Virus record (IMG/VR): IMGVR_UViG_2529292922_000010
From: a virus
Lineage: Duplodnaviria; Heunggongvirae; Uroviricota; Caudoviricetes
Reading direction: 5' to 3' (one strand)
Length of the DNA stretch: 64,000 bases
The notes under the pieces are model-generated. The model was not told the origin of the DNA. It saw only the letters and a list, made by a program, of their open reading frames with translations, and did no database searches. Position 1 is the stretch's first letter. Every line of letters begins with the position of its first letter. Positions 4,881 through 64,000 of this stretch are shown in pieces. The translations under genes were made by a program, and so were the position numbers.

Positions 4881-5924
4881 TTATCTAACACTCGACGAAT
4901 GACTTGTGATAGCGCCGACTCCAAGCGCGTAATCAAAGAACAATCGTTGATGCATCGCCAGCCTACCGTGCGTCTTCTCCCAATTATCGCGGTCACGCTC
5001 AATATCACGCTGGCATGACTGGCACAGAGGAATAGCATAAATGTCATGCGCGCATAATCGACTATGACGAACGATATAAGGCGTAATGTGAGCGCCAGCT
5101 CCCGCAGCTCCACAGCCACAGCATGGACGGGAAGCCACAAAGTCCATGTACTCGGGCAATTTTAGCGATTGAAGTTTTGGTATCTTGAAATGCGCCATAC
5201 CTGGGTCGGAGTCAACATCCACAGGGCATACTTTTGCACGCATCGGCGCGGCGCGTTCTTCCATCATCTGAACATATGCTGTAGCGCGATCGTCATACGG
5301 GCGAATATCCGCCTCTTTCAGAGGTCCGCTATCCTGCGTTGCGGCTTTCATCTTATTTATTGATATACGGCAAACTTCTTCCGGCATCAGGTGCATCATG
5401 TTGCGCATGAAAGCCCACCAGCACAGTTCCTGAATACTTAAATCATGGCCATCTGAAAGCCCCATTTCCTGACGGGCGACATCCAGTATCCAGTTAACGC
5501 GATTATTATGCAGCGTTTCTTTCAGCTCATTAAAACCACGCATCCGGTAATGGTTATCGTGATGCCAGCACAACAACACCGCGCTATTGTCTCGTTCTGC
5601 GTGGACAATATGGTTGTCACACCAGCTACGATCTGCGGCCTGGCATTGCCCCTCTTTCCTGCGCAACCACGCCACCAGCGCGTCAATTCCACCAATACGG
5701 CGAAACAGTTCATCGCTGTTAAAAAACGGCTGCAACGCCTCATTTGTTGCCATAGTTTGCTCGGAAACAACGAGGCCGTCGTCCATGTGCTCGATTAACT
5801 CACGCGGCACCGGCTCCATAATAAATTTACGGCCAGCCTCCACCAGCTTTCTGACTTCCTGATCCACTTTGAATGTGGCGACGCCAAGCTCTTTTTGTAC
5901 AAAGGGAGTAATTACGGCTTTCAC
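4881..5924 (-). CDS. pdcA: hypothetical protein with Cys-rich C-terminal region (post-doc gene A position)
   Basis: 347-aa ORF; CCGCG...CQSCQ cysteine cluster; synteny with P1 pdcA. Confidence 0.5.
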
Positions 5925-37308: not shown

Positions 37309-37412
37309 TTGACTATACGCGATTTTATGTTGACTGTGTGCGATTTTATGTTGACTGCACGCGATTTATTGTTGACTATACGCGACAGAAACGTTGACTG
37401 TACGCGATTTTA
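37309..37412 (+). repeat. incC iterons (five ~19-bp direct repeats, TTGACTNTNNGCGATTTTA)
   Basis: five tandem repeats at roughly 21-bp spacing upstream of repA. Confidence 0.8.
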
Positions 37413-37488: not shown

Positions 37489-38373
37489 ATGCCGGAAGAA
37501 AGTAAAGGCTTCCTTAGCGTTGAAGAAGTTGCAGGAAATACAGGAGAAATCCACAGCCTGAAGCCCAATAACAACAGCACTATACAACCTATCGCTTTGT
37601 TGCGCTTAGGTGTGTTTGTGCCAACCTTAAAATCTACCAATGTGGCACTACGTCGCGGATCGTCAGTTACTACAAACACAACGAACGCAACCGAAGAACT
37701 ATCAAGCCTTAAAATTGTTGAGCAGGAAGGCTATGAGGGAATTGAAATTCATGGCCCACGCCTGGATATGGATACTGATTTTAAGGTGTGGGTGGGCATA
37801 ACCTCCGCGTTGTTTGACTACGCACCTGATGATGACGGCATAATCACCCTGCCATTCTCCGAGTTTGCCGATCGATGCGGCTATCCACGTAAGCGCCTTT
37901 CAAAGGCGTTCCGTAAAAGTATTGATGACTCTCTGACACGCATTCAGCAGACAGTTGTCAAATTCCGCTTCCCGGCGGCAAAAGGTCATCTCAATAACAT
38001 TAACGTCAACTTGTTGGCATATAGCAGCCTGAATACCGAGCTTGATGTTATCGAGATCCAGCCGCAGAAACAGCTATCTGAACTTTACTATGTTGACTAT
38101 AAGCGAATCCTGAAGCTGAAGATGCTGGATAAGCTCGGGCGCAAAGAGACGGCCAAGGTACTGTATACATTCTTTGAGGCTCTACCCGCCAACCCGGCAC
38201 CTGTCAGCATTGAGCGCCTTAGAGCAAGGCTTAATCTCAAATCATCCGTTAGCGTGCAAAATAGCGTTATCAGAAAAGCCATGAAAGATTTGGAAGCTAT
38301 TGAATATCTTAAATTTTCAGAGATAAAAAACGGCAGGAAAATCGGCTTCCAGATCCATAAGCGCAATCCATAA
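37489..38373 (+). CDS. repA: plasmid replication initiator RepA
   Basis: 294 aa; conserved segments TIQPIALLRLGVFVP and GPRLDMDTDFK resemble P1 RepA; flanked by iterons. Confidence 0.85.
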   Translation: MPEESKGFLSVEEVAGNTGEIHSLKPNNNSTIQPIALLRLGVFVPTLKSTNVALRRGSSVTTNTTNATEELSSLKIVEQEGYEGIEIHGPRLDMDTDFKVWVGITSALFDYAPDDDGIITLPFSEFADRCGYPRKRLSKAFRKSIDDSLTRIQQTVVKFRFPAAKGHLNNINVNLLAYSSLNTELDVIEIQPQKQLSELYYVDYKRILKLKMLDKLGRKETAKVLYTFFEALPANPAPVSIERLRARLNLKSSVSVQNSVIRKAMKDLEAIEYLKFSEIKNGRKIGFQIHKRNP

Positions 38374-47519: not shown

Positions 47520-47675
47520 TTACCTTTCAGATTCGTAGGCTGTGAAGACAGTGACCTCCGTCTGGCCGGTTCGGATTCGTACCTCGCAGAGGTCTTTCCT
47601 CGTTACCAGTGCCGTCACAATGACGGTTAAACAGATGACGATCAGAGCGATTAACATCGCTTTTTGCTGCTTCAT
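47520..47675 (-). CDS. hok: Hok/Gef-family type I toxin
   Basis: 51 aa MKQQKAMLIALIVICLTVIVTALVTRKDLCEVRIRTGQTEVTVFTAYESER, near-identical pattern to Gef/HokC. Confidence 0.9.
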   Translation of the reverse strand: MKQQKAMLIALIVICLTVIVTALVTRKDLCEVRIRTGQTEVTVFTAYESER

Positions 47676-47733
47676 AGCCTGCTTCTCCTTGACCTTTTGG
47701 TCGGTAAGAGGCTAATCTACGTATGCTAAGCAT
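47527..47733 (-). CDS. mok: Mok-like overlapping reading frame (translational coupler for hok)
   Basis: 68-aa ORF overlapping hok in another frame, as in hok/mok/sok loci. Confidence 0.5.
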   Translation of the reverse strand: MLSIRRLASYRPKGQGEAGYEAAKSDVNRSDRHLFNRHCDGTGNEERPLRGTNPNRPDGGHCLHSLRI

Positions 47734-47770
47734 AGATGTGGCCTCAGATTAATGTTAAGCGTCTTGCAGG
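47690..47770 (+). ncRNA. putative Sok-like antisense RNA region (approximate)
   Basis: inferred from locus architecture opposite the mok start; boundaries not determined. Confidence 0.25.
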
Positions 47771-47856
47771 ACGCGTAATGTTATCTGGGGCTTTCTTCTA
47801 TCTGCTTTTCGGGTAATGCCTGAAGCAGATAGCCTCAAGCACCCGCAACGATTGTA

Positions 47857-51249: not shown

Positions 51250-51340
51250 GTTACGGCCTCACAATCAGGTTTAACAACCTGCTACCCGCTGCTAAACAGG
51301 TGGCAGGACGTGACGGGGTTAGCAGACTGGCGATTGTGAA
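51250..51340 (-). ncRNA. putative C4 antisense repressor RNA region (approximate)
   Basis: position between operator at 51566 and icd, as in P1 immI; boundaries not verified. Confidence 0.3.
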
Positions 51341-51565
51341 ACCAGCAGGCCGAAGCCTCCCCATCACGCCCCACCATAATTTGGGCGTAACGCGGTTTTA
51401 CGGACACAAAAATACCGCAATATCGGATATCTGCGGCTGTCCGCACAATCATTCAGGCTGCTAAACCCGGTCGCAGAATTTGCTACGACGGCGGAACTAT
51501 AAGCCTGAACGATTAAAAGGTCAATATGATGCGAAAAGATAGCATTCGCGACTTAAAAATACAAA

Positions 51566-55075: not shown

Positions 55076-58000
55076 ATGGAAAGAAAAAACGCCAACATTG
55101 ACGATGTGATAAGGACGGTTGAAACCGCCAGCGCAAAAGAGCTGGAAGAGCTTGCAGGTATTCGGGAAGCCGTTGAAGATTTGAAAGGTGGGCGAGTTGC
55201 TACAGTTGATCCTGTCTCTCGCAGTGTGTCGGCATTAAATCGCACAATCGAAAATTCCCGGCCAGACTTTGTGGCCAATGCGCCATCAGTGGACCCTATT
55301 GTTGAGGCAATGAAACGGCTTAATTTAGGGGACGTTTCTCGTGTAGTTCAGGAGGATGTTGCTCTACAGGAACCGCAGGCCAAATCAACTACGCGAAAGG
55401 GTAAAAAACGACGCAAGAAGGCTATAACAGAAGATGTAAAGGCGCAACGGACCGAAGCAGCCGAACACGCTCGCGAAATGTTCGGTCAAAAAGGCGGTGC
55501 GCAAAAAAGCCAAAACCAACGCGATGCGCGTGGTCGTTTTATTGGAAAGTCAGGGAGTAAGGCCGCAGCGGAAGATGCCCGTGCTGAACGTGCTGAAAAG
55601 GCCAGGCGCAAAGAGGATGATGAGCGTCTAAATGCTGAATCAGGTTTATTAAAAAAACTGTCAAAAGTAGCTGAAGGCATAGGTAACCCTTCAGAGACTC
55701 GTGCCGTCGATGCGTTAGGTTATGCCGTTGCTGGTCCATTGTGGGCAGCAGGGAAGGAGCTTGGCGGGATATCAAAAGAAGTTGGTGGATCGCTTAATGG
55801 TGCCAGAAAGTCTATTGCCGATGTGATTCGTGGCAATGACGATAACAGCCGTAGAAAAGGTTTTTTTAGGCGTAAATCGCAAAATAGTGCCGATGTCGTT
55901 CAGGTTAACACCCAAAAACGGACGGTTCAGGAACTTCAGGAGCAGACCAGCGAAATTAAAGAGGGCAATGACAAGATTCTCCGCGCCCTTGATCAGATAG
56001 CCAAAAACACCGGGAAAAAGAAGGGCGGCTTGCTGTCCAAACTATTTAGCCTGTTAGGGAAGGGGGCCGGTGGCGTCGCGTCGTTGTTAATGGGGCGTGG
56101 CATGCTGAAAAAAGCTGGAGCACTCGCTTTTGGCGCTCTGGGGGCAAAGAAACTTGTAGGAATGCTACGCGGTGGTGGCAAGAAGACTCTCGCCCATGAA
56201 GGCGGAGATTTGGCTGCCCGGGCAGCAGGTAAACTTGGATTAAAGGCAGTTGGTAAAGGGGCGTTACGCGCAATTCCCCTAGTCGGCACAGTGGCTGGAG
56301 GTATTTATGATGCGGTAACCGGTTGGAATGATACAGAAGCGCAACGTCGAGCGTTTGGGCTTAAATCAGGACAAGATCCATCATTCCAGCAAAAAGCCGC
56401 TTATACGTTAGCTAATGTTCTTGATATGGGGGGACTGGTATCTGGTATTAGCAGCGCCATTGGTGAGGTTCTCAAATCACTTGGATTTGAGGATATCGGC
56501 AATATGTTGCAATCATTTTCGACGGAAAGTATTGCCCAGGCCATTGATAGTGGGATTACCAACTTAGAAACATATATTTCTAACCTTGGCGACACCATTT
56601 CTACCAAGTTCGATGATTACACAGCAAAGATTGGTGATGCTGTTTCAGCATGGTTTAGCGATACATCTAATAAGCTGCTTGAAAAGCTGGATGCCATCAA
56701 AGACTTCTTTACTGTCGATAACCTGAAACAGGTTTTCAGTGATGCAATTGATAGTGCAATTGATTTCATTAAGAACCCAGGGAAACATATTAAAGAGGCG
56801 GCTGGTAATATTTGGGATGGGGTTAAAAATTTCCCCGGTAAAGCATTAGATGCAGCGGTTGATGCCGTTAAAAATACCCCTGCGGCAATGATTGTATCAA
56901 AAATACCCAATCCGATCGGCGAGGCTAATGCGAAAGAAATCACTCCAGAGTTAAAAGCTCCGGTTAATAGCCACCAGGAGACATCTGATTCTAAAACTGA
57001 ATCCGATGCCAAACAGACTAATATTGTTACCCGCGTGATAAATGCGGCACTGGACACGGCGAAAGATAGCAATAAAACAGTTAAAGAAACTGCTAATCAG
57101 ATTATCAATGCAAATGCCGTAGAAACGGGCAATAGCGCGTTGCAGAAAATTGATAAAGCTATTGGTCAAAATAGCTCGTCATCATCGTCGCTTAATACCA
57201 CTGGCACCAGGAATGACATTCAGAAAGCTGCGGATACCTACAACAATGGCAACTTGGATGTAAAAGTCGGAAGTCTTGGCGCTGAAGGTAAGGCAAATCT
57301 CGATAAGTTGGCTCCGTATTTTGCCGAACTAGAGAATAAATACGGTCTTCCAGAAGGCACTCTTTACGCGATTGCTGCAACTGAATCTGGTGGTAATCCG
57401 TATGCAAAATCCCAAACCGGTGCTCTGGGGATGTTTCAGTTCACGGGGATTGCTCGTGAAGAGACTGGCTTAGCTGAAGGTGAATCGTTTGATCCTGTGA
57501 AATCGGCAGAAGCTGCGGCTCTTCTCATGAGCAAATATCTGAAGCAAGCCAATGGAGACTTAAACGAGGCCATCACTGCATATAATGCTGGGTTTGGCAC
57601 TATCAATAAGTGGAAAAAAGGCACAGGTGACTTATCGAAAGAAAACCGTGAGTACGCGATCAAGGTCAATACTCATCGTGCTCGCTATTTAGGTGGTGAA
57701 ATCTATACACCTGGAGCAGGAGCACAGGGTGGGGCGCAATATGGAGTGAGGGGACCACTGCCTGATAACGCTGTTATCGATCAGTCTACTGGCCTGGCGT
57801 TTACCCCTGGTGATAGCCCGTTTGAGAAAGGCGGTCTGGTAGACAAAATTGGCAATGCTGTTGGCGTTAACGATCTGGTCAACAAATTCATGAATGGCCG
57901 GGGTATGCGTCGGGAAGTCGTTCAGGGAACGCTCGAAGAACGTGCACGAGGGAAGGGGACCGCAACAGCAGCTGGCAATGTGTATGTTGATACTCCGATG

Positions 58001-58468
58001 CCAGTTGAAGAGGCGCGTCCGGTGGCCAGCAACTCAAGTTACTTTGACCAACTCGGCGCACAAATGGGGATTGATGGACTATTTGATAAACTCCGCAACT
58101 CGCCGGGGATGCGGAAAAATAATGCGCCTGAACCAGCCTCCACGTCCCAGGTGACGACTGCCGCCAACGATTTGCAGCAACCAACCGGTCGTATGCAGAT
58201 AGACGGACAGGTTATTAGTGACCTTGGCGGCTCCGGTGCCAAGCCGACAATGCAGTTGGCTGATAATACCGTTTCACTTGATGGTGAAACGAAGCGGCTG
58301 TTTGCGCAGATGACCTCATTGCTTGCCAGGATTGAAGAGCACACTAAAGACTCGGCGAAAGGCCAGGGAACTGTCGTAAAGGTCAGCACGCCTCAACCGG
58401 GCGTTATGCGCACGGTGCCACTGTCAATTGATGATCCGTTGATGAATGACTACGCGAGAGTTGATTGA
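55076..58468 (+). CDS. sit: tape-measure-like injection protein with lytic transglycosylase domain (Sit)
   Basis: 1130 aa; Gly/Ala/Lys-rich repeats; SLT motif LPEGTLYAIAATESGGNPYAKSQTGALGMFQF. Confidence 0.85.
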   Translation: MERKNANIDDVIRTVETASAKELEELAGIREAVEDLKGGRVATVDPVSRSVSALNRTIENSRPDFVANAPSVDPIVEAMKRLNLGDVSRVVQEDVALQEPQAKSTTRKGKKRRKKAITEDVKAQRTEAAEHAREMFGQKGGAQKSQNQRDARGRFIGKSGSKAAAEDARAERAEKARRKEDDERLNAESGLLKKLSKVAEGIGNPSETRAVDALGYAVAGPLWAAGKELGGISKEVGGSLNGARKSIADVIRGNDDNSRRKGFFRRKSQNSADVVQVNTQKRTVQELQEQTSEIKEGNDKILRALDQIAKNTGKKKGGLLSKLFSLLGKGAGGVASLLMGRGMLKKAGALAFGALGAKKLVGMLRGGGKKTLAHEGGDLAARAAGKLGLKAVGKGALRAIPLVGTVAGGIYDAVTGWNDTEAQRRAFGLKSGQDPSFQQKAAYTLANVLDMGGLVSGISSAIGEVLKSLGFEDIGNMLQSFSTESIAQAIDSGITNLETYISNLGDTISTKFDDYTAKIGDAVSAWFSDTSNKLLEKLDAIKDFFTVDNLKQVFSDAIDSAIDFIKNPGKHIKEAAGNIWDGVKNFPGKALDAAVDAVKNTPAAMIVSKIPNPIGEANAKEITPELKAPVNSHQETSDSKTESDAKQTNIVTRVINAALDTAKDSNKTVKETANQIINANAVETGNSALQKIDKAIGQNSSSSSSLNTTGTRNDIQKAADTYNNGNLDVKVGSLGAEGKANLDKLAPYFAELENKYGLPEGTLYAIAATESGGNPYAKSQTGALGMFQFTGIAREETGLAEGESFDPVKSAEAAALLMSKYLKQANGDLNEAITAYNAGFGTINKWKKGTGDLSKENREYAIKVNTHRARYLGGEIYTPGAGAQGGAQYGVRGPLPDNAVIDQSTGLAFTPGDSPFEKGGLVDKIGNAVGVNDLVNKFMNGRGMRREVVQGTLEERARGKGTATAAGNVYVDTPMPVEEARPVASNSSYFDQLGAQMGIDGLFDKLRNSPGMRKNNAPEPASTSQVTTAANDLQQPTGRMQIDGQVISDLGGSGAKPTMQLADNTVSLDGETKRLFAQMTSLLARIEEHTKDSAKGQGTVVKVSTPQPGVMRTVPLSIDDPLMNDYARVD

Positions 58469-58824
58469 TGGCCAACAATAACGAAATTGATCCTTTGCTG
58501 ACGCTGGAGTTATCCGGCGTAAAAACGTATGAGTCCCAGGAGGAGGCCTGGGGCGCTCGTTTATATGAGTGGCTAAACACTTATCAGGGTGAGGTATACG
58601 GAGATCCGTCATGGGGCAATGTTTTACCGCAGTTTAAACACGAACCGACCAACTTGTCGCATGTTCAAATTGCGGTTGAGGCAATGCTTTTGCAAAAACT
58701 GACGGTAGATTTACCCGACATACCGATTTCTGGCTTGTCAGTAGCCGAGGGAGATGCTTTTGATAAGTTGAAAATATCCATTCGTATCAGGGATATAACT
58801 ATCACACAGGACGTGGTGCTATGA
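58465..58824 (+). CDS. baseplate wedge protein (gp25/GPW-like)
   Basis: 119 aa, size/position typical; overlapping start with sit stop. Confidence 0.45.
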   Translation: MMANNNEIDPLLTLELSGVKTYESQEEAWGARLYEWLNTYQGEVYGDPSWGNVLPQFKHEPTNLSHVQIAVEAMLLQKLTVDLPDIPISGLSVAEGDAFDKLKISIRIRDITITQDVVL

Positions 58825-60254
58825 GTAAAACAACACCTACTAAAGACAGTATTCGTGCAGAGTTTGAAGAGCTTGTCGAGAAAGATTCATTCTGGTCGAA
58901 GTTTGTCGGCTCTCAATTTGTCTCGATGCTGACATTGTTTATTACCCAGATTGTCTACAGGTGCTTTCAGTATGCCGATGCGGCGCTGGCTGAAGGCTTT
59001 ATATCGACCGCGACGCGGCGTTCTTCTATCCTGGCAGCGGCAGAAACGAATAGTTACGTTGGTACCAAGCCAACACCGTCATCGGGGATGATTGAGATCA
59101 CCGCCACAAGTGAAGATGCCCCAGCGGTAATCCCCAAAAATATGCCTTTAATATCTGACGACCAGTATCCTTACATGACTATGGATGTATGCAGGTTGGT
59201 TGACGGCACCGGTACGGTAGAAGTGGCACAGTTGGAAATCCAGGAGGTGACATATACCGTTACGGCAGCCAAAGAATTTCTGGAAGTCGTGTTATCAAAG
59301 GCTCTCACTGCTGTCTGCTATAAGCTGGAAGTATTCGTGACGACCGATGGTAAGACCACGCAGTGGTCTTCCAGCACTATGTTCCGGTTAGCCGGTAGTA
59401 AAAGCCAGGTCTACGTTGAGTTTTATAAACCATCCGAGCAGTTGGGGGTTCGATTCGGTGATGGGCTAATTGGGCAAATACCGCCAGAAGGCTCGACCAT
59501 TACGCTTAAGGTATGGTGCACCAACGGCGATATAACCCTGGTTGCTGGCCAAAACCTGACGCCTGTCGATTCTGCGGCTAATTTAGCTAATTTGATTTCA
59601 GTTAAGACAACGACACCTATAACCGCAGGTACCGATGCCGAAACAACGGAGATCACACGTAACCGTGCACAATATTACCTTGCCTATGATGATCAGGTCG
59701 TATGGGGCGGGGACTATACGTATTTTCTGGTGCGTAACATCCCGGGACTGTCCTGGGTAAAGGCATGGGGCGAAGGCCAGCAAGAGAAATTAGATGGTGC
59801 TTATAATGTTCGGAATATCAATAAGATATTTATTTCAGGATGGCATCCAAACAAAAGCCAGTCAGAGCTTGAAGAAATGATCCTGGCTGCCTTTAAGAAG
59901 GTGCCGAATGAGTTGAACAAGAAATTCTCGTATAAAGAGGTCAGAAAACTCCCCTTTAAGATCACCATCACTGGGCGGATATCGGCAAGCCTGACCATTG
60001 AGAACGTGACTGATGAGCTGAAGTCGGCACTGGAAACAAAATTTGGGCGTGACTCAACTTTCTTTGATCCGAACCGTGTCGGCAAGTACATCCTAATCAA
60101 GAAAAAAGACGTTTGGGCATTTATCGAAACGCTGGGTTATTTCCGCGACTTTTATCTGGAATTTGTCGAGTGGAATGAGTCCAACGGCTTTTACGATTTC
60201 GTTTATCTGGATACAGAAAACTCCACCTTTAATATTTCGTATGAGGAGGAGTGA
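58821..60254 (+). CDS. baseplate J-like protein
   Basis: 477 aa following gp25-like gene. Confidence 0.45.
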   Translation: MSKTTPTKDSIRAEFEELVEKDSFWSKFVGSQFVSMLTLFITQIVYRCFQYADAALAEGFISTATRRSSILAAAETNSYVGTKPTPSSGMIEITATSEDAPAVIPKNMPLISDDQYPYMTMDVCRLVDGTGTVEVAQLEIQEVTYTVTAAKEFLEVVLSKALTAVCYKLEVFVTTDGKTTQWSSSTMFRLAGSKSQVYVEFYKPSEQLGVRFGDGLIGQIPPEGSTITLKVWCTNGDITLVAGQNLTPVDSAANLANLISVKTTTPITAGTDAETTEITRNRAQYYLAYDDQVVWGGDYTYFLVRNIPGLSWVKAWGEGQQEKLDGAYNVRNINKIFISGWHPNKSQSELEEMILAAFKKVPNELNKKFSYKEVRKLPFKITITGRISASLTIENVTDELKSALETKFGRDSTFFDPNRVGKYILIKKKDVWAFIETLGYFRDFYLEFVEWNESNGFYDFVYLDTENSTFNISYEEE

Positions 60255-61090
60255 TGCAGCGTTCCTGGTTTAATAACCGGCTTACATCAGCTAAGCAAAA
60301 GTCATTACTTTATAAATCATTGGCTGATTTGGTTCAGTCAATGATGGACACCTTTGTTGACCCATGGTTGGAGCGAATTACCAACCGGAAGTCTATTTTC
60401 TCCATGAGCAAGGAGGATCTGGAGACTAGGACAAATGAACTTGGCCAGTTTTTTACTATCAGAACGTCGAATTCATCTTCCGTTCCGATGTTGTTACAAC
60501 AGCGGTTTGATGAGATCCATTTTAAGGGTACTGAACGCCCTATAAACCAGACAATTTATCGCGAATTTAACGGTATATCGGTTTTATGGGATCCCATATA
60601 TGCTCCGGTGGACTTTGAACGTCATCCCTATGGCACGGTCCTGATTCCAGAAAGCACACTGGAAACCACCGGCGGCACATTCGGCGAGATGTTTCTGACT
60701 TCCAGAGGAATGATCAGTATTCCCATAAACGACCTGGCCCGGACAATGGGTATTACTGGAACGATAGATCAGTCCGCAATTACAGAAGAAATTCTCAGAA
60801 AGTTTAATCAGTTCGTAAAGCCTCTACTGCCACTGCATATAGTGTTTGATGGGCTTACGCTCTATTTGTCGGTTGTTGTAAATGAACAGGCCGACATGAT
60901 CACTTTGAATGAGATTTCTGATACCGAAAAAGCATTCTGCTGGTTTGAAACTTCGGATACAACTTCGCTTACTGAAGTTACGTCGATTAACGCCCCGATC
61001 ACTGCAACGCCGGGCGGCACTATTGTGAAAGCAACGCCTACGTTTGATCGCACCCGCGCAGATGATTTGCTGTTGGATAGCGATGCGTGA
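60251..61090 (+). CDS. baseplate protein
   Basis: 279 aa, translationally coupled. Confidence 0.4.
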   Translation: MMQRSWFNNRLTSAKQKSLLYKSLADLVQSMMDTFVDPWLERITNRKSIFSMSKEDLETRTNELGQFFTIRTSNSSSVPMLLQQRFDEIHFKGTERPINQTIYREFNGISVLWDPIYAPVDFERHPYGTVLIPESTLETTGGTFGEMFLTSRGMISIPINDLARTMGITGTIDQSAITEEILRKFNQFVKPLLPLHIVFDGLTLYLSVVVNEQADMITLNEISDTEKAFCWFETSDTTSLTEVTSINAPITATPGGTIVKATPTFDRTRADDLLLDSDA

Positions 61091-61168
61091 CAATCACCCC
61101 GTCCGCAGGGCGGGGTGACAAGTTACTTATCTTACAATGAGGCTTCACAACATTGATTAGGGAAAATC

Positions 61169-61603
61169 ATGTCTGACGTCTCAACAAACCTCTATAAGAG
61201 TCAGTTGTTGGACTATTACTATCAGCGGCGCGCTGAATCGTCCATTAACAAAGGCTCTCGATTTTTAATCAGCAAGGCCGTTTTCGGTACCAGTTCACTG
61301 GTTACTAAGAAAGGAGATGGCACTTATGAGATTGGAGAACTGCCAAAGGCTTTCGATCTGGCAGAACTGACCAGTCAATTTTGCACCATCAACCTCGTCC
61401 CAACCTACTCAGGCGGGATAATTACTGTCCGAATGGACCTTGATCAAAGTCAGTTGCAGGAAGGGAAAAACTACCCATTCAACACTCTGGTTGTTCTGGA
61501 TAACGAGAATAAGCCAATCGCCATTATTTGTGTCCAGGAAGACTCGCTGTATGTGGGCAAAACATATACCGCAGTTATGGCCATAAACTCGACTACAGCA
61601 TAA
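61169..61603 (+). CDS. tail-fibre-associated protein (P1 R position)
   Basis: 144 aa immediately upstream of tail fibre gene. Confidence 0.45.
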   Translation: MSDVSTNLYKSQLLDYYYQRRAESSINKGSRFLISKAVFGTSSLVTKKGDGTYEIGELPKAFDLAELTSQFCTINLVPTYSGGIITVRMDLDQSQLQEGKNYPFNTLVVLDNENKPIAIICVQEDSLYVGKTYTAVMAINSTTA

Positions 61604-61614
61604 GGATATGCTTG

Positions 61615-63471
61615 ATGAATGACGTTACAGTTGTTACATCGGTTACTTACCCATCACCCGAGTCGTTGGCTCTGGTGGCTGATGTGCAATACCACGAACC
61701 ATATCTGTCAGCCGCTCTAAACCGAAAATTCAGGGGAATTGTTGACCCGGGATTTTATGCTGGTTTCTTGCCTAAGCCTGGCGGTGGGATGAACCTGTTA
61801 ATCACCTCAGTGGATGGAGATAAAACCGCTGGCGCGGCGTCAGTGGATATTGGTGAATTCTACCAGGTAACTATTCAGCATCGTAAGGATATCTCTCTTG
61901 CACTTAACGCAGGCAAGAAATATGCAATTGTGCTGAAGGGAAGATACCTTCTTGGAGAAGATACCTATCAGGTTAATACCGCGTCACATATTCATGCAGC
62001 TGAATTTGTTGCCAGAACCTATACCGATTCATATCAGTTAGGTGATGGGGAACTGCTGGTTTGTACGGTGAATATCCCTGCTGGCGTATCTACCATTACT
62101 CAAGAGATGATTGATACATCCGAGCGTATCAACCGCACGATCGGCATTGATATTTCAGACTCTGTAACCAGTACCAGAAGTGATGTTGCTGCGAGTTCGC
62201 TGGCAGTTAAAAAAGCCTACGATCTGGCGAAAAGCAAGTATACGGCGCAGGATGCAACCACGACACAAAAAGGGATAGTTCAGCTCAGTAGCGACACCAA
62301 CAGCACTTCTGAAACATTAGCTGCAACTCCAAAAGCGGTTAAAGCTGCATACGATCTAGCAGCCGGAAAGGCACCATCCAGTCATACACATCCCTGGAAT
62401 CAGATCACTGGTGTGCCAACAGCTTCATTGACAGCGAAAGGCATCACTCAGCTCAGTAGTGCCACTAACAGTACGTCCGAAGTGCTGGCCGCCACACCGA
62501 AAGCTGTCAAGGCTGCATATGATTTGGCTAACGGGAAGTATACAGCCCAGGATGCAACCACGACACAAAAAGGGATAGTTCAGCTCAGTAGCGACACCAA
62601 CAGCACTTCTGAAACATTAGCTGCAACTCCAAAAGCGGTTAAAGCTGCATACGATCTAGCAGCCGGAAAGGCACCATCCAGTCATACACATCCCTGGAAT
62701 CAGATCACTGGTGTGCCAACAGCTTCATTGACAGCGAAAGGCATCACTCAGCTCAGTAGTGCCACTAACAGCACGTCTGAAGTGCTGGCCGCCACACCGA
62801 AAGCTGTCAAGGCTGCATATGATTTGGCTAATGGAAAGCAAGCGGCAGACGCTACGCTCACTGCTCTAGCGGCACTAGCTACAGCAGCAGATAAACTCCC
62901 TTATTTCACAGGTGTTGATCGTGCCGCGTTAACTGCATTGACAAGTGTTGGACGCGCCATTCTTGGTAAGACCAGTATTCAGAGCGTTCTTGATTACCTT
63001 GGTTTAGGGGAAGGCTCGGCGCTGCCCGTTGGTGTACCTGTTCCATGGCCCTCAGCCACACCGCCAACGGGGTGGCTGAAATGCAATGGTGCAGCATTTT
63101 CTTCTGAAAAGTACCCAAATCTGGCAAAGGTTTACCCTACTAATAAATTGCCGGATCTACGGGGCGAATTTATTCGCGGCTGGGATGACGGGCGGGGGAT
63201 TGACTCTGGCCGTAATTTATTATCTGCACAGAATGATGCAATTCAGAATATTGTTGGTTCTTTCGGGCGTACTCAGCTTTTTAGAGATGTACTTAGTTCA
63301 GGGCCATTTAGTCAACATGGTCAAGTATTATCTACAGGCCTAAAGGAAACGGAAATTATTGAGGGTTATGGCTCTTATAACTGGACATTCGACGCCTCTC
63401 GCTCAGTTCGTACAGCATCTGAAACCCGCCCCCGTAATATTGCATTTAATTACATCGTAAGGGCGGCATAA
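61615..63471 (+). CDS. tail fibre protein (S-like) with collar-type receptor-binding C-terminus
   Basis: ATG at 61615 in frame of ORF 61528..63471; repeated T-x-x-KGIVQLSS fibre motifs; C-terminal PWP...GWLKCNGAAFS...LPDLRGEFIRGWDDGRG...NIAFNYIVRAA. Confidence 0.85.
   Translation: MNDVTVVTSVTYPSPESLALVADVQYHEPYLSAALNRKFRGIVDPGFYAGFLPKPGGGMNLLITSVDGDKTAGAASVDIGEFYQVTIQHRKDISLALNAGKKYAIVLKGRYLLGEDTYQVNTASHIHAAEFVARTYTDSYQLGDGELLVCTVNIPAGVSTITQEMIDTSERINRTIGIDISDSVTSTRSDVAASSLAVKKAYDLAKSKYTAQDATTTQKGIVQLSSDTNSTSETLAATPKAVKAAYDLAAGKAPSSHTHPWNQITGVPTASLTAKGITQLSSATNSTSEVLAATPKAVKAAYDLANGKYTAQDATTTQKGIVQLSSDTNSTSETLAATPKAVKAAYDLAAGKAPSSHTHPWNQITGVPTASLTAKGITQLSSATNSTSEVLAATPKAVKAAYDLANGKQAADATLTALAALATAADKLPYFTGVDRAALTALTSVGRAILGKTSIQSVLDYLGLGEGSALPVGVPVPWPSATPPTGWLKCNGAAFSSEKYPNLAKVYPTNKLPDLRGEFIRGWDDGRGIDSGRNLLSAQNDAIQNIVGSFGRTQLFRDVLSSGPFSQHGQVLSTGLKETEIIEGYGSYNWTFDASRSVRTASETRPRNIAFNYIVRAA
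62236..62835 (+). repeat. 2 x 300-bp near-perfect tandem duplication inside the tail fibre gene
   Basis: 62236-62535 and 62536-62835 differ at only about 5 positions. Confidence 0.9.
62987..63012 (+). other. hix/cix-like 26-bp crossover site 1 (within tail fibre gene)
   Basis: TTCTTGATTACC-TT-GGTTTAGGGGAA versus recalled hixL TTCTTGAAAACC-AA-GGTTTTTGATAA. Confidence 0.55.
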
Positions 63472-63490
63472 AAACGTTGGTTTGGGGGAA
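63465..63490 (+). other. hix/cix-like crossover site 2
   Basis: GGCATAAAAACG-TT-GGTTTGGGGGAA spanning the stop codon of the tail fibre gene. Confidence 0.5.
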
Positions 63491-63958
63491 GGCTCAGCAT
63501 TGCCCGTTGGCGTGCCCGTTCCGTGGCCCTTAGAAACACCGCCAACGGGGTGGCTGAAATGTAACGGAGCAGCATTTTCTTCTGAAATGTATCCCAAACT
63601 GGCAAAGGCCTACCCCACCAATAAATTACCGGATTTACGGGGAGAATTTATTCGCGGCTGGGATGATGGGCGCGGGGTGGATGCGGGACGTGCTTTATTG
63701 AGCATTCAGACAGGAATGCTGGAAAAGCACCGACATATTGTTGTAGCCAATGATGGTTACGACACAAAAGATGAATGGGAGCTGGCGACAATTTTCAAAA
63801 AAACATACACACAAGGACGGGGGCTTGATGCCTCAAATACAGGAGGGAATTTGATTCCATCACCGACACTTCATTCTCGAGGGAGTATTGGTAATACTGG
63901 CGGGAGTGAAACCCGTCCACGAAATATCGCATTTAATTACATCGTAAGGGCGGCATAA
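63479..63958 (+). other. silent alternative tail-fibre receptor-binding cassette 2 (promoterless, +1 frame relative to S)
   Basis: encodes GLGEGSALPVGVPVPWP...GWLKCNGAAFS...RGEFIRGWDDGRG...RPRNIAFNYIVRAA; conserved ends, divergent middle versus S C-terminus. Confidence 0.7.
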
Positions 63959-63977
63959 AAACGTTGGTTTAGGGGAA
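63952..63977 (+). other. hix/cix-like crossover site 3
   Basis: GGCATAAAAACG-TT-GGTTTAGGGGAA. Confidence 0.5.
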
Positions 63978-64000
63978 GGCTCGGCGCTGCCCGTTGGTGT
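63966..64000 (+). other. start of alternative tail-fibre cassette 3 (truncated by window end)
   Basis: GGTTTAGGGGAAGGCTCGGCGCTGCCCGTTGGTGT identical to cassette start in S. Confidence 0.6.

Follow-up and report, generated by a model that had tools for sequence, protein, structure and literature searches.

The window analysed here is a 64,000-nt stretch, the first 64 kb of the draft whole-genome-shotgun contig AIEX01000036.1 (assembly GCA_000249095.2). Its right end carries the tail-fibre genes R and S, whose features are collected in Table 1. Pfam PF26881 (Phage_P1_tail_fiber_R) is recorded for a gene identical to R, and the position of R matches that in the P1 record M81956. The first 728 nt of S share 93-94% nucleotide identity with S of P1 and P7. 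Pfam finds PF03406 in five stretches of S with 291.3 bits against a gathering cut-off of 22, together with PF07484 and a C-terminal Collar domain. Residues 109-154 of the solved Mu fibre protein S (5yvq, 9ki1) align with one repeat module, and the tip is similar to the solved T4 gp37 tip (2xgf) and to 9cuy, a 'short tail fiber'. A sequence-only reading had placed a large repeat in the tail-fibre shaft of a P1-like phage. The identity to P1 and P7 S, the PF03406 matches and the upstream gene R bear out this placement, and the homology of the N-terminal part to P1 gpS with R directly upstream marks the gene as S of a P1-like phage (Punavirus). The host element is a P1-like IncY phage-plasmid of the p15B/Min type.

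Table 1. Features of the R-S region, numbered from the first nucleotide of the 64-kb window.
Feature	Position	Strand	Description
Gene R	61169..61603	+	ORF; P1 tail-fibre protein R homologue; directly upstream of S
Tail-fibre gene S	61615..63471	+	618 aa; P1-like N-terminal part, array, linker, variable tip with Collar domain
a0 (AVKKAYDLAKSK)	62203..62238	+	3' half of a fibre module, truncated; bounds the array on the left
U2, copy 1	62239..62370	+	132 nt, 44 aa; one PF03406 module
U3, copy 1	62371..62538	+	168 nt, 56 aa; APSSHTHPWNQITGVPTASLTA linker and one PF03406 module
U2, copy 2	62539..62670	+	
U3, copy 2 (terminal)	62671..62838	+	terminal-type markers AGC..TCT..AATGGA
Conserved linker (QAADATLTAL...SVLDY)	62839..62998	+	bounds the array on the right; closes the constant part of S
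Crossover-site-like TTGGTTTAGGGGAAGGCTC	62999..63017	+	junction of constant and variable parts; encodes YLGLGEG
Expressed variable tip cassette	63018..63471	+	Collar domain; similar to 2xgf and 9cuy
Silent alternative tip cassette	63477..63958	+	direct orientation; starts at the second crossover-like site
Third cassette	from 63964		runs off the window

Several other elements were noted in the window. Rfam places a C4 antisense RNA (P1 immunity) with a1/b1 targets at 51296-51502 and a sok-type antitoxin RNA at 47670-47844, both consistent with a P1-like prophage-plasmid. Three tRNA genes, for Met (cat), Thr (tgt) and Asn (gtt), lie on the minus strand at 28363-28438 and 30439-30592. A 21-nt tandem repeat of 4.9 copies (consensus TTGACTGTACGCGATTTTATG) occupies 37309-37412, just upstream of the ORF at 37489-38373; this repeat probably represents the replicon iterons of the plasmid. 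Upstream of R, and separating it from the preceding baseplate-region gene, the G+C-rich inverted repeat TCACCCCGTCCGCAGGGCGGGGTGA at 61092-61122 occupies the place of the late promoter Ps region of P1, and may be a terminator or a regulatory hairpin.

The constant part of S ends at the TTGGTTTAGGGGAAGGCTC site, which has the same position as cix in P1 S. The crossover-like site TTGGTTT(A/G)GGGGAAGGCTC occurs at 62999, 63477 and 63964, that is, in three direct copies against none expected by chance. The downstream tip cassettes encode about 150 aa each with a Collar domain, and each starts at such a site. Further cassettes lie past the window on the same contig (L009, 4858-7857), as they do in a second isolate (L008, 4868-7791), and the cassette order differs between these two isolates with the same S gene. 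Some cassettes of the near-identical plasmid p1506-2 are inverted, and this plasmid also has a gene for tail-fibre assembly and, next to the cassettes, one for a 'recombinase family protein'; no recombinase gene of this kind lies inside the window, which stops at 64000. Judged by its sequence organisation, the cassette region is probably a p15B Min-type multiple-inversion system, not a simple P1 C segment.

We then inspected the repeat upstream of the linker. The S-gene array is the only large tandem repeat that Tandem Repeats Finder reports in the 64-kb window (62236-62838, period 300, 2.0 copies, 98% matches, no indels, score 1164). The segments 62236-62535 and 62536-62835 stand head-to-tail and are identical at 294 of 300 positions, so that the near-identical 300-bp direct repeats of the sequence-only reading are confirmed. 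Copies 1 and 2 differ at 62244 (G/A), 62247 (G/C), 62472 (T/C), 62478 (C/T), 62532 (C/T) and 62535 (G/A), leaving perfect runs of 8, 2, 224, 5, 53 and 2 nt, the longest being 224 nt. In the frame from the ATG at 61615, all six differences fall at third codon positions and are synonymous; hence the two 100-residue protein copies are identical. At 98% identity over 300 nt, a chance origin is impossible. Each copy encodes the two fibre motifs that had been read from it, QKGIVQLSS...TPKAVKAAYDLAAGK and AKGITQLSS...TPKAVKAAYDLANGK, and lengthens the protein by 100 residues within the S frame, as had also been proposed. The array has the make-up of a coding VNTR, at least two head-to-tail copies of a unit whose length is divisible by 3, with its two 300-nt copies. 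Weaker similarity begins already at about 62203, where a0 resembles the 3' end of the 300-nt unit, and the phase in which the repeat had been described is therefore arbitrary but valid.

Each 300-nt copy is composed of two PF03406 modules, U2 (132 nt) and U3 (168 nt). U2 encodes YTAQDATTTQKGIVQLSSDTNSTSETLAATPKAVKAAYDLAAGK, and U3 encodes the APSSHTHPWNQITGVPTASLTA linker followed by KGITQLSSATNSTSEVLAATPKAVKAAYDLANGK. The common form of the array is a0-U1-(U2-U3)n, with or without a final U4, followed by the linker; U1 and U4 are 132 nt each, and n is the number of 300-nt U2+U3 units. U1 sits between a0 and the first U2 in most relatives, and a terminal U4 is present in some. The window array has n = 2 and has lost U1. 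Its a0 is identical at 36 of 36 nt to the 'repeated element a0' of the P1 record M81956. The first 19 nt of U2 copy 1 are of the U1/a1 type (TATACGGCG...), a trace of the lost U1. The 3' 90 nt of U3 copy 1 carry the markers AGT..TCC..AACGGG and are identical to the U1 3' half of p1506-2 (90/90). At the right anchor, the linker matches at all 158 nt in 10 of 11 relatives compared and differs at 1 of 158 in NZ_JBRWUK010000002.1. Among the modules, the 90-nt 3' halves of U1, U3 and U4 agree pairwise at 82-86 of 90 nt, and the 3' half of U2 agrees with them at 63-67 of 90. On this divergence U2 is an older paralogue, and the divergence of its 3' half accounts for exchanges being mostly in the 300-nt register.

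The U3 linker contains a His-Thr-His segment (SSHTHPW) that occurs once per 300-nt unit, at 62380-62388 and 62680-62688, and is invariant in a 30-sequence alignment. T4 fibre proteins carry metal-binding His-x-His motifs. SSHTHPW recalls these motifs, and by this analogy the copy number would set the number of putative metal sites in the shaft. An AlphaFold2 monomer model of S, built on the 30-sequence alignment, was unusable (mean pLDDT 33.6, pTM 0.25); it gives a weak hint that the TPKAVKAAYDLA segments might be helical.

The array was compared with that of an independent assembly, GCA_012777275.1, in which a 94.5-kb contig encodes the same 618-aa protein. The array DNA is identical in the two. 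Only two nucleotides differ over the whole S gene, both outside the array, and the downstream cassettes follow in a different order. An exact-protein look-up found the window allele only in these two WGS draft assemblies, and the window a0/U2 junction was present in no record of 5,426 complete E. coli genomes or PLSDB, the best match reaching 97.5%. An assembly artefact is made less likely by the identical array in the independent assembly, and from this sequence comparison we conclude that the window allele is real. Two copies is strictly a lower bound, because internal units are identical and a short-read collapse also leaves 'first plus last'; a draft contig could under-count. It is conceivable, then, that the true unit number differs, for example that three or four units were collapsed to two. 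The draft origin of the contig would allow this, as would internal copies that are identical in multi-copy alleles and longer than short reads, and exactly one 'first' and one 'last' copy are what is seen. Nevertheless, we regard a miscount as quite improbable: the same array stands on the 94.5-kb contig of GCA_012777275.1, the six markers are arranged as expected of a genuine recombinant, and real two-copy alleles exist in complete genomes.

Relatives were compared with the window over 3158 nt of flanking sequence, 3000 nt to the left and 158 nt to the right. With no flank mismatches at all, CP044439, CP041630 and p1506-2 have n = 1, pUSDA5905_1 and pPEC399_2 have n = 2, and the window and GCA_012777275.1 have n = 2 and no U1. 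CP088789.1 has n = 3 with a single flank mismatch. More distant flanks accompany n = 4 in CP088508 (12 mismatches), n = 0 in pD72-mcr1 (a0-U1-U4; 10 mismatches), n = 3 plus U4 in p779-3 (9 mismatches), and n = 4 plus U4 without U1 in NZ_JBRWUK010000002.1 (9 mismatches). The survey was extended with a flank-only BLAST query against the 5,426 complete E. coli genomes, which matched 500 records; array lengths were taken from the 57 best records having both flanks at an identity of at least 99.4%. These 57 best complete plasmids, with flanks 99.4-100% identical, hold about 15 array lengths from 264 to 1766 nt, and the length is divisible by 3 in 54 of them. Eight records with 100% identical flanks have arrays of 432, 731, 732 or 1332 nt, sizes that are not always uniquely decodable, since 1332 nt equals either U1 plus four units or four units plus U4. 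An evenly spread sample of records reached n = 6, and about 30% of the P1-like records sampled have this array type. Among the 120 best protein homologues, a ranking that favours long arrays, n runs from 1 to 6, and irregular U3-U3, U2-U2 and U1-less orders also occur.

The comparison with related P1-like genomes that the sequence-only reading had called for thus yields 0-6 copies of the 300-nt unit on conserved flanks, as expected of a VNTR. Its alternative of a length-variable locus is strongly supported by this range among near-identical relatives. The window repeat is one allele of an array varying from 0 to 6 copies, an ordinary length polymorphism.

Some S genes are irregular in other ways. 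CP041630 (NZ_CP041630.1) has an internal duplication at 5057-5365, in which the linker ending in ...SVLDY is joined directly to the HPWNQITG of U3 and is followed by a second linker; the region past its crossover site is garbled. This duplication is either a product of illegitimate recombination or an assembly problem. In two P1-like phage genomes (ON470617.2 and ON470615.2), S across the array is annotated as several 'tail protein (Fragment)' pieces, which suggests frameshift errors or a mis-assembled array. S is annotated in fragments in the two best phage matches, vB_EcoM-813R1 and vB_EcoM-673R5, and these therefore give no proof that particular alleles function in virions.

The differences between copies carry information on how the window allele arose. 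In all arrays compared, every internal copy terminates in the U1-type AACGGGAAG, and AATGGAAAG is confined to the end of the last copy. On sequence grounds this pattern reads as the mark left by exchange between U1 and U3 within their 3' halves. In the window, the differences at 62472, 62478, 62532 and 62535 are exactly the U1-type versus terminal-type U3 markers, and the U3 3' half of copy 2 equals the terminal U3. The remaining two, at 62244 and 62247, mark a U1/U2 hybrid at the 5' end, which follows from the loss of U1. Use of the six differences as a clock for the age of a duplication was rejected, as each matches a pre-existing difference between paralogous modules; being inherited from the parental modules, they do not date the event. 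Events of this kind are recurrent, since three two-copy alleles with identical flanks have three different crossover points (T,C in the window; C,C in pUSDA5905_1; C,T in pPEC399_2).

A single step suffices to obtain the window allele from a sequenced relative. Removal of 432 nt from the three-copy allele of CP088789.1 reproduces window positions 62215-62838 with 0 mismatches in 624 nt. The deletion runs from the a0/U1 junction to the first of the U3/U2 junctions, and its crossover lies within CAGGATGCAA. By this exact match, a one-step contraction is at least as likely and as parsimonious as a fresh duplication, and the window allele may be a contraction.

A fresh duplication in situ would instead start from an a0-U1-U2-U3 ancestor such as that of p1506-2, and would proceed by two events. 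First, U3 and U1 would cross over unequally in their 3' halves, adding 300 nt; in a second step, involving the 5' ends of U1 and U2, U1 would be deleted, a loss of 132 nt. The single-copy plasmid p1506-2 fits as a starting point: over the 3158 nt of flanks it has no mismatch, the 3' half of its U1 equals the U3 3' half of window copy 1 (90/90), and its U3 matches copy 2. However, two events are needed against the one exact deletion from CP088789.1, and the route through the sequenced two-copy allele of pUSDA5905_1 leaves 2 mismatches. We therefore consider a fresh duplication rather unlikely. Of the very recent in-frame duplication that had been put forward, the in-frame part stands; 'very recent duplication' has to be revised, because the differences pre-exist between modules U1 and U3 and between two types of junction, and a 432-nt deletion is sufficient.

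With its module anatomy, copy-number polymorphism, recombinant junctions and exact derivation read directly from the sequences compared, the feature is very probably an allele of an in-frame coding minisatellite that is hypervariable and lies in the constant, shaft-coding segment of a P1-like gene S. As to mechanism, we infer that whole 300-nt units, and occasionally units of 132 or 168 nt, are gained or lost when modules misalign, either in homologous exchange or through replication slippage. The first step would use the 23- and 53-nt perfect stretches common to the 3' halves of U1 and U3, and later steps could use the 300-nt perfect repeats. Since the length of each module is divisible by 3, no product loses the frame. 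Arrays that differ on identical flanks could also stem from exchange of alleles between co-resident P1-like plasmids instead of change in situ. A Chi-hotspot explanation was dropped, there being no Chi sites in 58000-64000.

The array sits between the conserved N-terminal part of S and the linker before the tip. Each unit would add 100 residues, consisting of two fibre modules and the His-x-His linker, to the trimeric shaft; fibre length would change, and the baseplate-binding N-terminus and the receptor-binding tip would be untouched. Any effect on fibre length or host range is likewise inferred. In E. coli, resistance genes are commonly carried by P1-like phage-plasmids, and it is the S fibre on which the host range of these elements depends. 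Conceivably, diversifying selection acts on the copy number, such that the length of the shaft adjusts how far the tip reaches across layers of O-antigen or capsule, complementing tip swapping by the downstream invertible cassettes. The extreme length diversity on near-identical backbones points in this direction, as do the frame kept in 54 of 57 alleles between conserved N-terminal and tip-proximal flanks and the fact that the array shares its gene with a putative multi-cassette system for switching tips. Frame preservation is nonetheless automatic with modules divisible by 3, and a recombination-prone array under neutral drift yields the same pattern; such selection on length thus seems unlikely. 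Still more doubtful is the fuller proposal that the array is a selected fast-switching 'length rheostat', in which the tip is changed by inversion and the reach by homology-driven steps of 100 residues. Were it true, the same fibre gene would be diversified along two axes, matching hosts of different O-antigen or capsule depth, and expansion and contraction would possibly be boosted by the phage's own recombination-enhancing functions.

Irrespective of selection, the shaft array changes much faster than the sequence around it, with 0-6 units on near-identical backbones. It can serve as a typing marker for P1-like plasmids, and it makes short-read assemblies of gene S unreliable. The alleles also constitute a natural series of fibre-length variants, usable for adsorption tests on smooth or encapsulated hosts.

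The array reveals no new kind of system, and its closest counterpart is in P1 itself. The elements a0, a1, b1 and b2 of P1 gene S (M81956) are tandem shaft modules in the same gene and at the same position, upstream of the crossover site. P1 a1 corresponds to the window-type module U1, with 102 of 132 nt identical. P1 b1 and b2 are copies of a different, 222-nt unit and are old, with 139 of 222 nt identical. P1 lacks the 300-nt U2+U3 unit of the window, whose copies are 98-100% identical and vary in number. Repeat amplification in gene S is thus already annotated for P1; next to the old b1/b2, the window array is young by sequence divergence, and polymorphic. For P1 and p15B, Sandmeier, Iida and Arber reportedly described in 1992 amplified sequences that form mosaics of repeated elements. 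A full-text literature search found no description of copy-number variation of the S array.

The Min-type operon of p15B, of the Pin/Cin/Gin family, resembles the window in having short tip cassettes at crossover-like sites past a constant S, the p15B sequence itself being outside the comparison. The Min-type system swaps tips by site-specific inversion, and the array is a separate, homology-driven length polymorphism upstream of it. At the level of modules, the unit of the window is made of two PF03406 (Phage_fiber_2) repeats of the kind found in Mu S, P2 H and lambda Stf. In most members of this family, the modules are diverged paralogues, in contrast to the near-identical DNA copies in the window. 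Large coding tandem repeats are also known from the alpha C/Rib proteins of group B Streptococcus, the adenovirus fibre shaft, and T-even gp37 with its motif-mediated recombination. These proteins belong to families unrelated to S, and their repeat number has documented functional effects. As in the window, their units are in-frame and tens to about 100 residues long, the number changes by homologous misalignment, and an exposed fibre or adhesin changes its length and keeps its ends.
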